Positions 26,429-30,109 of a stretch of 42,042 bases of DNA are shown here, one piece after another. The stretch is taken from sequence record NC_048112.1; one strand, given 5' to 3'. Positions within the stretch are counted from its first letter, which is position 1. Each line of letters opens with the position of its first letter. Under the pieces are notes generated by a model that worked only from the letters and a program-made list of their open reading frames with translations, did no database searches and was not told the origin of the DNA. A program made the position numbers and the translations under genes. The DNA is from Escherichia phage Skarpretter.

Positions 26429-26478
26429 TCTCGGCGCTCCCCTTGTTGATTCTGGCAAAGTCTAACATGATGCGAAAA

Positions 26479-26522
26479 ATAGCACGAATTGCTAAAGCAT
26501 TTCACGTTAAAGTGATTATAGT
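26479..26522 (+). promoter_or_regulatory. conserved promoter element driving the 3-gene cassette
   Basis: ATAGCACgaatTGCTAAA, 22 nt, TATAGT, aatCTCACAttcac, ~35 nt before ATG at 26557. Confidence 0.6.
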
Positions 26523-26556
26523 AATCTCACATTCACGAACAAATGAGGGCTTTAAA

Positions 26557-26763
26557 ATGTTAACTTTCGTAATCGTTGTTGCGGCGCTGTCCTGGATCGT
26601 CTGCTCATGGCTCGTTGGCGCGGCTGCTGGGCGGTACTTCGCCAGCCCGGTTTGCGCGTGGGTCTACCTGGGCGTTTCGCTGGTGCTGTCGCCGCTGGTG
26701 GGCCTGCTGGTGCTGTTTGGCTCTCACCTGCTGGACTACATCGAATCGCGGGGCCGCGCATGA
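26557..26763 (+). CDS. small membrane protein (two predicted TM helices)
   Basis: 68 aa, two hydrophobic helices; GAGGG SD; ATGA overlap with next ORF. Confidence 0.55.
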   Translation: MLTFVIVVAALSWIVCSWLVGAAAGRYFASPVCAWVYLGVSLVLSPLVGLLVLFGSHLLDYIESRGRA

Positions 26764-26933
26764 AACGTAAAGAGCGGTTAAGCCTGCTGGCAGTGCGCAA
26801 CCTCGCGGCGGGCTGTCCGCCGTCAAAGATCCCCGGCCCTGCGTCGCGCATGGACTGCGAGGAAATTATAACGGAGTTGGCCCAGCGTTACGTGCGGCTC
26901 CTGGATAAAGTCAACGCTATGAAATACAGGTGA
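26760..26933 (+). CDS. small hypothetical protein
   Basis: 57 aa, translationally coupled (ATGA); shares ELAQR motif with following ORF. Confidence 0.45.
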   Translation: MKRKERLSLLAVRNLAAGCPPSKIPGPASRMDCEEIITELAQRYVRLLDKVNAMKYR

Positions 26934-26937
26934 TAAG

Positions 26938-27123
26938 ATGGACGAAATAACGATAAGCATTATCGATCAGCTTGCGGACGGCGTGCCGTTTTACGATCTC
27001 CTCTCCGGGTACGATAGCGAATCGCTGATCCAGGAGTTGGCCCAACGCTTACGCGATGCCAACGACGAGATCGAAAGCCTGGGTTATGAGGTGATGGAAT
27101 TACAAGATCCGGGGAGTTCATGA
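26938..27123 (+). CDS. small acidic hypothetical protein
   Basis: 61 aa, AGGTGATAAG SD, followed by terminator. Confidence 0.5.
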   Translation: MDEITISIIDQLADGVPFYDLLSGYDSESLIQELAQRLRDANDEIESLGYEVMELQDPGSS

Positions 27124-27124
27124 A

Positions 27125-27152
27125 AACAGGGGCCATTGCGGCCCCTTTTGCG
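27125..27152 (+). terminator. rho-independent terminator (bidirectional position)
   Basis: GGGGCC-attgc-GGCCCC followed by TTTTG; between convergent cassette and terL 3' end. Confidence 0.7.
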
Positions 27153-28793
27153 TTAGTAGTTGCTCGGTACGTTGTACCCGGAGTAATCCGGCTTGATCAC
27201 CTTCTGCGGCGGCTGCATCGTCATGATCAGGCTATCCGCCATGCCCGGCGATTTGATTTTCAGCTTTGTACGCATCTGAGGCTTAGGCATGCGGGAAAAC
27301 TTGCCGTTTGCGTTGTAGATCCTCGGAATGCGGCAAAGCTCCGCACGTAGCTTGCTCATGTACTCCCCGATCCCGTCGCTGTCCAGGCTGATCAACTCGT
27401 CCGGGTTGATGTAAAGCGTTTCGCCTTTGTCCAGTGCTGCTATCACCTGGGCGGTTTTCTCAAAGCGTCGGCGTAACAGGTAAATATCTTGCGATCCACG
27501 GTTGGCGAATACGTCGCTATTGCTGCTCGCGTTCTTCCCTTCGGTTGGGTTGTTCAGCCACTTATCAAGCTCTACGGGGGCGTCCGGGAATTTCACGCCG
27601 TCGCCTGCGTTGTAGCCCTCAACCATTACCGGAGTGTTGGCGTAAGCGTCAGTAAGCTGGCGGCGCAAGCCTGCGCCCAAACCTGCCCTATCCCACATCA
27701 GCGCGTCAACGTGCGCGGCTTTGGACTCTGCGATCGCCACGTCTGCGGCGTCGTTCGCGTCACCCTCCAGCCAGGACAAACCACGAGTAACCACGGAGCC
27801 GTGCCGGACGATAAACGCTTTGTTATCCTCGCCAACGTCTGCCGGGTCGAGTGCGCCAATCTTCATGCCGGACGGCTTAAACCCGATCCGCTTGTGGGCG
27901 TCGATCGCTGCATCAAACCATTCAGCCGGGATAATCGCATCCGGCACGGAGTCATTGAAAGCGCCTTTCCAGATATGATCGAACAACGCACGGGAAAGCG
28001 TTTTAAAGTCGTATTCCATTTCAGCCCGGAGCGACGCCGGAAACCACGGGTTTTTGTCGTAGTTCACTTTGATCACGAGGTGTAGATCGTCCTCGTAGAT
28101 CCCGTCTTTGTCCAGGGCGTCCGTAAACGGCACGATGAAACGTTTACTAAATGGATCTTCACTGCTGCCGGGGTTGGCGGTGAAGATCATATAGCCCCCT
28201 TCCTCACGCATGGTTGGGGTCAGCTTGCGTAATGACTCCTCGGAAAAGGTCTGCGCCTCCTCACCCCAAAAGCGTTTAAACCCATAGGACGATTTCACGC
28301 CGTCCGGGTCGCGGGCCATACCTTTAAAGACGTGCAAGCCGCCGTTGACGTGGCGGATCTCGTCTTTCATCACTTCGAAACCGTCATACCCGGCACGCTC
28401 GATCATCTGCGAAAGTAGCGGGTGTACGGAGTATTTAATAGCGGTCTGAAACTCGCGGAGGTTCATCACCTTTACGGCGTCGTCGTTCACGTCACCGTTA
28501 AGGATCATCCCGGTTGAGTCGGATTTACCGGAGCCACGGCCCCCGATCACGATGTTAAAGCGTTTGGGGCGCGTTAAGAGCGGCTCCAGCACTTCGGGGA
28601 TCGTGACGTGGTGAGGCTTATCGGTTTCCACCCAGCGGTGGCCCTTTTTGGTGATGTTCTTTACGTGTTCCGGCAAGCCGTTTGCGCCGGGTCGGTAAAT
28701 GCCATAAACCGTGCGGGTGTAGGTGCTAATGTGTCGCGCTTTGGCCTCTGCTGTCGCCATGCGCTGCATGATCTGCTTTAGGTTACGCCCCAT
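27153..28793 (-). CDS. terL: terminase large subunit
   Basis: 546 aa; Walker A IVIGGRGSGKSDS, acidic nuclease-domain residues; directly upstream of portal. Confidence 0.85.
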   Translation of the reverse strand: MGRNLKQIMQRMATAEAKARHISTYTRTVYGIYRPGANGLPEHVKNITKKGHRWVETDKPHHVTIPEVLEPLLTRPKRFNIVIGGRGSGKSDSTGMILNGDVNDDAVKVMNLREFQTAIKYSVHPLLSQMIERAGYDGFEVMKDEIRHVNGGLHVFKGMARDPDGVKSSYGFKRFWGEEAQTFSEESLRKLTPTMREEGGYMIFTANPGSSEDPFSKRFIVPFTDALDKDGIYEDDLHLVIKVNYDKNPWFPASLRAEMEYDFKTLSRALFDHIWKGAFNDSVPDAIIPAEWFDAAIDAHKRIGFKPSGMKIGALDPADVGEDNKAFIVRHGSVVTRGLSWLEGDANDAADVAIAESKAAHVDALMWDRAGLGAGLRRQLTDAYANTPVMVEGYNAGDGVKFPDAPVELDKWLNNPTEGKNASSNSDVFANRGSQDIYLLRRRFEKTAQVIAALDKGETLYINPDELISLDSDGIGEYMSKLRAELCRIPRIYNANGKFSRMPKPQMRTKLKIKSPGMADSLIMTMQPPQKVIKPDYSGYNVPSNY

Positions 28794-29235
28794 CGAATAG
28801 CGCCCCCATTGCCTTAAAACCTTCTGTTGCTACCAGTTCAGTAAAATATGCCTGGTGCTCGTCGTTGTTGGTGTCCAGCCGCACGCCGTGGTGCTCAAAG
28901 GTCATGTTGACAATATGCACGGCCTCGTGAACAACGCGCCCGCAAAGCACGTTGGGATCGGGGTGGTGGTGGAAGCCCGCCAGGATCAGATAAAGATCAT
29001 CATCCGTGAAATATTCCGTAACCTTTGCGCCGCACGGCCCGCCCTCGGCTGGATCGTAGTCAATCCCGGCAACCTTTAACGGCTCCGGGTTGTCAATGTC
29101 ATACCACACAACGATCGTGCGGTAGGGCTGGCACGGCGTCCACTGTAACCGGGCCTTTTTCAGCCCGGCGAAAGTGTTAGCTTTGCGCTTCGTCGTCTGC
29201 ATTTGCTGCGGCTTTGTGCGCTTCGGCTTGTTCAT
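28783..29235 (-). CDS. hypothetical protein with HExxH motif (possible zinc metallopeptidase-like)
   Basis: ~150 aa from ATG at 29235; basic N-terminus, GFHHHPDPN...VVHEAVHIV...EHH; located between putative terS and terL. Confidence 0.5.
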   Translation of the reverse strand: MNKPKRTKPQQMQTTKRKANTFAGLKKARLQWTPCQPYRTIVVWYDIDNPEPLKVAGIDYDPAEGGPCGAKVTEYFTDDDLYLILAGFHHHPDPNVLCGRVVHEAVHIVNMTFEHHGVRLDTNNDEHQAYFTELVATEGFKAMGALFDGA

Positions 29236-29734
29236 CGATCCGGTTCTCCAGTTCTGCCAGGCGTTCAAGGATGCCGCTGATCTCCTGCACCTCTGCGCCT
29301 TTCTTGAAAATGTCGATCAGGGAGTGCGCCACGTCTACGGCGATCTCACCTGCTGCAACGGCTTTCATGATCGCGTCGATCCGCTCGTTCGGCGTCCAGT
29401 TCGGATCAAAGTCAAATTGCACTTGCGGCATGGTGGGGCGGGAGTACGGGATCAGGCGTGCCAAAATATCCCGGTACATGCTCGGATCGCGCATCGCCAT
29501 TTCGATCCCGCGTTGGATAAATGCGGCCTCGGTTAAGGTCTGCTCTTTGCGCTCGCCTGTCTCCGGGTCGGTGGTCTGGTATTTGACCGTTTTCAACGCC
29601 TCAAGTAACAGGGTGCGGAATTGTGGCCCGCGTGGTGCGCGTCCGGTTGGCTTGTTGTCAGGGCCAAAGGGCTTGCCTTTGCCGCGTCCTGCTTTGCCGC
29701 CCTCGATCAGCGGGTCTTTATCGTGCTGGCTCAT
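29177..29734 (-). CDS. putative terminase small subunit
   Basis: 185 aa; Gly/Lys/Pro-rich basic N-terminus, coiled-coil C-terminus; position upstream of terL; no diagnostic motif. Confidence 0.45.
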   Translation of the reverse strand: MSQHDKDPLIEGGKAGRGKGKPFGPDNKPTGRAPRGPQFRTLLLEALKTVKYQTTDPETGERKEQTLTEAAFIQRGIEMAMRDPSMYRDILARLIPYSRPTMPQVQFDFDPNWTPNERIDAIMKAVAAGEIAVDVAHSLIDIFKKGAEVQEISGILERLAELENRIDEQAEAHKAAANADDEAQS

Positions 29735-29797: not shown

Positions 29798-30109
29798 TCA
29801 ATGGCGAGCGCCTACCGGGCCAACGGTGCCCGTGCTGAGGTCGCGGGCCAACTCCTCCGGCGTGAAGTCGCGCAACGGTGCGCCACGGTGGTTAAACGCC
29901 AGGGGATCGGCGCTCTTGGCCTTGTAGCCGTTTTTGGCCTTGCCTTTGCCGATAGCGTTACGGCTGCACACCACGCAACGCCCGCTGGCAGTATAGCGCC
30001 CCTCGTTGTGCCCCATCTCGCACCCGCGCCCGTCATTGTATCGGGGCAATCCTCTTAACCTCGCCTCGGCTTTCGTCCTGGGCATGATTGCGATCGGGTT
30101 GTCCGCCAT
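29798..30109 (-). CDS. hypothetical small protein, possible zinc ribbon
   Basis: 103 aa with GCEMGH...CVVC. Confidence 0.4.
   Translation of the reverse strand: MADNPIAIMPRTKAEARLRGLPRYNDGRGCEMGHNEGRYTASGRCVVCSRNAIGKGKAKNGYKAKSADPLAFNHRGAPLRDFTPEELARDLSTGTVGPVGARH

Follow-up and report, generated by a model that had tools for sequence, protein, structure and literature searches.

Results

Gene X overlaps both terminase genes of phage Skarpretter

In the genome of Escherichia phage Skarpretter (MK105855, Skarprettervirus), a candidate small terminase gene (terS) and the large terminase gene (terL) are separated by a small gene, here named X, that is predicted to encode a stand-alone zincin-like protein of 150 amino acids (aa) and belongs by profile match to phrog_1365 (28783..29235, minus strand). 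The window analysed is the whole stretch of Skarpretter DNA, 42,042 bp long with a GC content of 55.8%. An original prediction made from this stretch had described an open reading frame (ORF) of about 150 aa with a basic N-terminus at 28783-29235, between the terS candidate and terL, and both the ORF listing and the sequence confirmed it: on the minus strand, X runs over 150 codons from an ATG at 29235 to a TAA stop at 28783-28785. The mechanical ORF reaches further, to a TTG at 29268, and the ATG (MNKPKRTK...) is the start kept in relatives. A 185-aa ORF (29177..29734, minus strand) is followed by X and then by terL (27153..28793, minus strand). At its 5' end, X shares 59 nucleotides (nt) with the 185-aa ORF (29177..29235, minus strand), and this overlap encodes a basic N-terminal tail that is predicted to be disordered (predicted local distance difference test, pLDDT, below 50 for residues 1-16). 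At the other end, the stop of X and the start of terL overlap by 11 nt (ATGGGGCGTAA; 28783..28793, minus strand), which suggests translational coupling; comparable X/terL overlaps of 11-25 nt are found in the phages IME279, C130_2, Kc259 and sortregn. Compared to one 92%-identical metagenomic relative, the ratio of nonsynonymous to synonymous substitution rates (dN/dS) of X was 0.20 over its full length and 0.13 when the overlap was excluded and, because of these values, X is, as judged from its substitution pattern, a real coding gene under purifying selection. Since X overlaps both neighbours and a consensus scan, which is weak evidence, revealed no terminator between the terS candidate, X and terL, the anatomy of the locus shows X as predicted to be co-expressed late with the terminase genes.

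An HExxH...NDE signature defines a large family of small phage proteins

Searching the PHROGs profiles assigned X to a family of unknown function (phrog_1365, expectation value E 3.9e-12). A family profile derived from phage homologues retrieved 245 proteins from a word-indexed database. When 1.84 billion cluster representatives, clustered at 50% identity, were searched exhaustively with HMMER, 7,339 of them matched at E<=1e-3, of which 1,689 also reached E<=1e-10. Members are mostly 105-125 aa long, span podo-, sipho-, myo-, jumbo and crAss-like phages, and were labelled 'hypothetical' in all GenBank phage records of the two listings examined. None of the matches listed from the word-indexed search carried a precomputed Pfam domain, and no informative fusion partner was seen in the longer members.

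We then considered the histidine-rich runs that had suggested a zincin-like protein, namely HHH (residues 91-93), HEAVH (103-107) and EHH (114-116). HExxH proved to be a true motif, invariant in an alignment of 89 homologues and followed by an invariant Glu 18 residues on, so the refuting outcome named beforehand, a motif that is not conserved, did not occur. The HHH and EHH runs varied among the homologues, even between the closest X alleles, and their proposed part in the metal site was not borne out. Invariant columns comprised H103, E104, H107, N110, N124, D125, E126, A129 and Y130, with D121 nearly so, giving the family signature HExxHxxN...D-x-x-NDE-x-x-AY. According to the alignment and the AlphaFold2 model, HEAVH (28915..28929, minus strand) supplies two predicted zinc ligands (H103, H107) and the predicted general base (E104) on helix 94-115, while in the downstream element D121-x-x-N124 D125 E126-x-x-A129 Y130 (28846..28875, minus strand) E126 is the predicted third zinc ligand and starts helix 126-147. 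H107 and E126 are 19 positions apart, corresponding to HExxH-x18-E, the classical gluzincin spacing. Weak Pfam matches of family members likewise point to HExxH peptidases (SprT-like, M78, M91, M61 and M30); additional weak matches to DUF2129, in 13 of the 89 members, probably reflect the N-terminal sheet.

The predicted fold places X among the zincins but outside the SprT family

With the family alignment as input, AlphaFold2 returned a model of X with a pLDDT of 80 and a predicted template modelling score (pTM) of 0.77. The disordered basic tail (residues 1-16) precedes a helix (21-27), two strands (32-35 and 40-46), a short helix (51-55) and two further strands (70-76 and 82-88), and the C-terminal part is formed by the long helix 94-115 bearing HExxH and the long helix 126-147 that begins with E126. 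Both hallmarks of gluzincins are present in the prediction, with HExxH on an alpha-helix and a third-ligand Glu on the next helix, within the usual distance of about 18-25 residues. In its layout of N-terminal helix, small beta-sheet and two C-terminal helices, the model fits the core of zincin-like metallopeptidases (MPTases), as defined previously (PMC5512222). A Foldseek search of BFVD, a collection of predicted viral structures, revealed that many uncharacterised phage proteins share this fold. Some matches carried labels, among them SprT-like family protein (E 5.9e-6, template modelling score 0.65-0.71), matches labelled SprT-like and PolyVal metallopeptidase followed at E 7.6e-3 each, and one labelled IrrE at E 0.33. 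Together, the HExxH-x18-E pattern and the predicted zincin core make peptidase the best of the readings originally offered for this gene, and the model indicates that X is probably a minimal zinc metallopeptidase.

Comparison to known systems places X more precisely. The ligand spacing is identical to that of gluzincins with HExxH-x18-E, such as the M1 aminopeptidase motif. Minigluzincins, minimal gluzincins of about 100 residues, represent a very small catalytic scaffold like that of X; the searches run detected no sequence or fold match between X and solved gluzincin members. With the SPRTN/Wss1/SprT-like proteins (PF10263), X has in common the HExxH helix following a small sheet, the existence of phage-encoded members and the SprT-like labels in BFVD. 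However, SprT proteins carry a downstream His in an HGxxW region and a C-terminal Cys-rich zinc ribbon, with H95, W99, H115 and the Cys-rich C-terminus invariant in our SprT alignment, whereas X has NDE and no Cys cluster. X itself did not match PF10263, the best value among family members being E 0.028, in 3 of 89 and far below threshold, and aligning the X family to E. coli SprT alone with hhalign yielded a probability of 3%; we therefore rejected SprT membership. Because the downstream His and the Cys-rich ribbon of SprT are absent, X is placed, on the strength of the model, as a separate family inside the zincin superfamily.

ImmA/IrrE proteins (PF06114, M78) are likewise small HExxH...E peptidases of mobile elements. 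For this family we obtained only sub-threshold M78 matches, in two members and at the motif (E 0.031 and 0.11), and membership was not supported. In contrast to ImmA/IrrE, X has no adjacent repressor, its neighbours being the terS-like gene and terL, and it resides in the late operon of a virulent podovirus. A profile search across SprT, ImmA and HNH families had been proposed as a check of the locus: it yielded no SprT or ImmA match above threshold and no HNH profile. Also among the closest known systems are the MPTase domains that polyvalent proteins of phages and plasmids contain (MPTase-PolyVal; Iyer et al. 2017, PMC5512222). These are also phage-borne, share with X, as predicted, the minimal core of N-terminal helix, small beta-sheet, HExxH helix and helix with a Glu ligand, include one BFVD neighbour so labelled and, as X, lie beside portal or MuF-type genes in some lineages. 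Unlike them, X is free-standing at 105-150 aa, whereas the polyvalent MPTase is one domain of a giant multidomain protein; moreover, the two have no significant sequence match and X has its own invariant signature.

X alleles are exchanged between nearly identical terminase genes

The order terS-like ORF, X, terL and portal gene, with overlapping frames, was found in Sortsnevirus (IME279, Sortsne, sortkaff), Hungariovirus C130_2, Murrayvirus (sortregn, KMB41) and Kosakonia phage Kc259. Because gene order is kept across these phages, X is therefore an old resident of the slot between terS and terL, not a recent insertion. For Skarpretter itself, we used five metagenomic relatives (L109, L110, L112, L114 and L115) as a comparison set. 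Amino-acid identity to the Skarpretter proteins amounted to 95-99% for terL and 84-92% for the terS candidate, and to 31-34% for X. Sliding-window comparison (100 nt) against L109 and L112 delineated a mosaic cassette over X at 28796..29236, in which nucleotide identity drops from the 85-100% seen over terS and terL to about 43-59%; the breakpoints, at about 29236 and 28796, coincide with the borders of the gene. For IME279 and sortkaff, terL is 100% identical and X 26%. Similar alleles occur in different genera, with the X of L112 being 70% identical to that of Hungariovirus C130_2, and the X of Sortsne 82% identical to that of Murrayvirus sortregn. A 'moron', one of the roles initially envisaged, is thus apt if the term is taken to mean an accessory cassette that can be exchanged, given X alleles of 26-34% identity between terminase genes of 95-100%. 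Since dN/dS is low between near alleles, the allele diversity looks like old divergence that has been reshuffled by recombination, rather than fast positive selection.

HExxHxxN and D-x-x-NDE-x-x-AY are kept in 10 of 10 intact alleles of the slot, and relatives also retain the start ATG and the basic tail, within a terS overlap of 59-77 nt. Automatic gene calls in the five metagenomic relatives begin X internally, giving 105-110 aa and no overlap with terS; in each of them X is open to the conserved ATG (MNKPKRTK/MSKQTRTK), corresponding to 154-156 aa and an overlap of 71-77 nt. One further contig carries an X allele with an in-frame deletion of 105 nt, bounded by CTG microhomology (L013:1013-1360, Logan SRR28250545). 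The deletion removes exactly the HExxH helix and leaves the frame and the terL overlap intact; the remaining X is 92% identical, and the terL of this contig 93% identical, to the Skarpretter counterparts. As far as this sequence goes, the deletion suggests that the activity of X is dispensable.

Mosaicism was also seen in a second slot, between terL and the portal gene (26459-27152): as over X, identity to close relatives drops sharply there. In Skarpretter, this slot contains small plus-strand ORFs (26607..26933 and 26938..27123), and in the relatives and C130_2 it holds two or three different small genes on the opposite strand.

The wider family occupies diverse genomic neighbourhoods

We next inspected the gene neighbourhoods of X homologues in other phages. 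In Guernseyvirinae the homologue follows DNA polymerase I, in one Drulisvirus it lies between helicase and DNA polymerase, and in Flavobacterium and Croceibacter phages it adjoins DNA methyltransferases. In a prophage of Fibrisoma and in several contigs from IMG/VR, X is found after the portal gene, between terL and portal, or before a MuF-type or major head protein. One such contig has the order terL, portal, X and a MuF-type head-morphogenesis protein (L034:4183-5640); the latter also matches the 'Bxa ADP-ribosyl transferase' PHROG and is therefore a polyvalent-type head protein. Among the recognisable neighbours in 59 non-redundant IMG/VR loci, genes for head and packaging proteins ranked first, yet they were present in only about 7 of the 59 (~12%). 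As this number roughly equals chance placement, we claim no enrichment of head or packaging genes near X. Judged by its neighbourhoods, the X family is not tied to packaging, and a dedicated packaging role, as considered in the original prediction, is not supported, since family members also lie beside DNA polymerase, DNA methylase and portal genes.

The terminase genes and their surroundings

terL (27153..28793, minus strand) was identified by its matches to Terminase_3 (PF04466, E 2e-26) and phrog_2 (E 1e-39). The 185-aa terS candidate (29177..29734, minus strand) matches phrog_9747 (E 5e-37) and has remote homologues with DUF5681 (PF18932); profile searches returned no Pfam or PDB match, no terS profile and no solved relative for it. 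In three phages without X, namely Burkholderia phage PE067, a Vibrio phage and Macdonaldcampvirus, a homologue of this ORF immediately precedes terL, and the PE067 homologue is annotated as terS. In the AlphaFold2 model of the 185-aa ORF, a disordered and basic N-terminus is followed by a small region of helices and, at the C-terminus, by a helix of 52 residues; this agrees with a small terminase, without proving that identity. The terS assignment, previously made by position only, thus remains positional, but it is firmer through the homologues preceding terL in X-less phages; in addition, no profile labels X itself as terS. A DUF5681 protein has been detected, with two peptides, in a virion preparation of Salmonella phage STGO-35-1 (PMC8954984). 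The label 'P22-like' is fair for the virion module, which comprises profile matches to P22_portal (E 1e-159), P22 coat (E 1e-75), a gp10-like stabilisation protein and a tailspike head-binding domain.

Directly after the terL stop, the consensus scan marked a GC-rich, terminator-like hairpin (27128..27146), weak evidence for what is the probable end of the terS-X-terL unit. Terminator-like sites in the region were not more numerous than expected from shuffled sequence, and apart from this hairpin the promoter and terminator scan did not rise above background. Just upstream of the terS candidate lies a 103-aa Cys-rich ORF (29798-30109, minus strand) with the motif ...GCEMGHNEGRYTASGRCVVC..., which matches two PHROGs without assigned function, phrog_1081 (E 3.5e-10) and phrog_30250 (E 2.4e-9), and, weakly, endonuclease VII (E 0.036). 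By these matches, its product may be a zinc-binding, nuclease-like protein beside the packaging genes.

Discussion

On balance, we lean towards X being a late, exchangeable accessory metallopeptidase of the gluzincin type, minimal and stand-alone, whose target would be a host- or phage-specific protein. In such an enzyme, Zn2+ would be held in the predicted site by H103 and H107, which share one helix, together with E126, the first residue of the following helix, and E104 would activate the water molecule that cleaves the peptide bond. Strand 82-88, right before the HExxH helix, may dock the substrate, while the variable surface of X may set specificity. Most likely, the target would be a host protein or a protein particular to that phage, candidates being a host defence or host factor late in infection, or a virion or ejection protein that needs processing. 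We infer a ranking of host proteins before DNA-bound proteins before virion proteins, with low separation between them. As shown by comparison of the sequences, X is not a fixed part of the packaging machine but an exchangeable accessory cassette: even where the terminases of two phages are nearly identical, their X alleles may have no more than the catalytic residues in common. A structural partnership of X with terS and terL is disfavoured by its independent exchange between phages with identical terminases, by the unrelated neighbourhoods of its homologues and by the apparent tolerance of a lost catalytic helix, all of which favour an autonomous accessory enzyme.

Several observations weigh against this reading. 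X and its family members have no significant Pfam, NCBIfam or PADLOC match, sequence and profile searches of the PDB with X returned nothing, and the searches run found neither a sequence nor a fold match among solved structures; the labels of the BFVD matches, in turn, are predictions themselves. When the X family was aligned to six SprT sequences from E. coli and phages, hhalign reported a probability of 59.6%, over 15 columns that cover the HExxH helix only. The slot of X is fixed in five genera with tight overlaps, leaving room for a link to packaging, and in the uncultured crAss-like phage cr116_1 (L020:3706-4345) an X homologue (VOG3488) overlaps the 3' end of a terS gene. The neighbour there is annotated as 'excisionase, terminase small subunit', constituting a second, unrelated adjacency of terS and X. 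Finally, the helix deletion is represented by one metagenomic contig and could be an assembly artefact.

The place of X in the terminase operon would be directly explained if X were a dedicated packaging accessory that trims or releases a terminase subunit, or clears proteins off the DNA ahead of the motor. The order of terS, X and terL with overlapping frames in Skarprettervirus, Sortsnevirus, Hungariovirus, Murrayvirus and Kc259 fits this role, as do the overlap with the annotated terS in the crAss-like phage and the lineages with X between terL and portal or after portal. We nevertheless consider it unlikely, as X is swapped independently of terS and terL (terL 100% versus X 26% identical, with breakpoints at the gene borders), many homologues reside in replication or methylase neighbourhoods, the fraction of IMG/VR loci in head or packaging blocks (~7/59) is roughly that of chance, one relative has the catalytic helix deleted, and P22, as is general knowledge, packages its DNA without an X-like gene. 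It is highly improbable that X is itself the true terS or that it is a packaging nuclease of the HNH type. Only its position immediately upstream of terL speaks for it, whereas Pfam, PHROG and NCBIfam gave no terS, HNH or nuclease match, the predicted alpha/beta zincin-like fold is unlike the helical architecture of terS, the family occurs far from terminase genes, and homologues of the 185-aa ORF fill the terS position in X-less phages. The earlier suggestion of a packaging accessory nuclease is likewise not supported: no HNH profile matched X at E<=1, and the conserved motif is HExxH...E.

A different substrate would be expected if X were an SprT/Wss1-like protease, tethered to DNA by its basic tail and degrading trapped or cross-linked proteins so that replication and packaging can proceed. 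Structural neighbours labelled SprT-like, the weak SprT-like Pfam matches, recurrent neighbours that handle DNA (DNA polymerase, helicase, methylases, terminase) and the basic, disordered tail of the slot subfamily are in line with this idea. However, the SprT alignment matches only the HExxH helix, the third ligand is the Glu in NDE and not the conserved His of SprT, and the zinc ribbon is missing; moreover, the core family of about 110 aa has no basic tail, the tail is encoded inside the terS overlap and may owe its composition to it, and housekeeping repair leaves the swapping of alleles unexplained, so that we regard this function as improbable. Similarly doubtful is a role inside the capsid, with X either packaged or acting on capsid-internal or ejection proteins, as a processing enzyme of virion proteins or as an injected early effector. 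It would agree with the late operon shared with head genes, with the lineages in which X is flanked by portal on one side and a head-morphogenesis (MuF-type) or polyvalent protein on the other, and with zincin domains being the commonest domain of polyvalent proteins (PMC5512222). On the other hand, no MuF or virion-domain fusions were present among the longer family members checked, and P22-type heads are generally known to mature without proteolysis; a literature search found no virion proteomics for the phage group of Skarpretter. A more specific version of a host-directed enzyme, to which we assign a small probability, is a protease that counters host defence and is co-produced with the terminase; it would cut host immune proteins, such as Avs-type sensors, that are triggered late by terminase, portal or capsid. 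If so, allele swapping would reflect an arms race in which target specificity is contested, and the family of 7,000 clusters would represent a major unrecognised class of phage anti-defence enzymes.

The zincin superfamily and its presence in phages are known already. By contrast, the stand-alone X family, its signature and its cassette behaviour in a terminase operon seem not to have been reported before, and a literature search revealed no functional study of the X family or of these Sortsnevirus, Skarprettervirus and Murrayvirus genes. For annotation, the terS candidate of these phages is the upstream 185-aa ORF, not X. Recognising X as a minimal zincin provides the family with a testable chemistry, and IME279 and sortkaff, differing in X while sharing an identical terL, represent a natural experiment. 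Should the alleles have no effect on host range or on resistance to defence systems, the X family would be a widespread but ordinary small peptidase; if they do alter either, it would form a new class of enzymes with accessory or anti-defence roles in phages.

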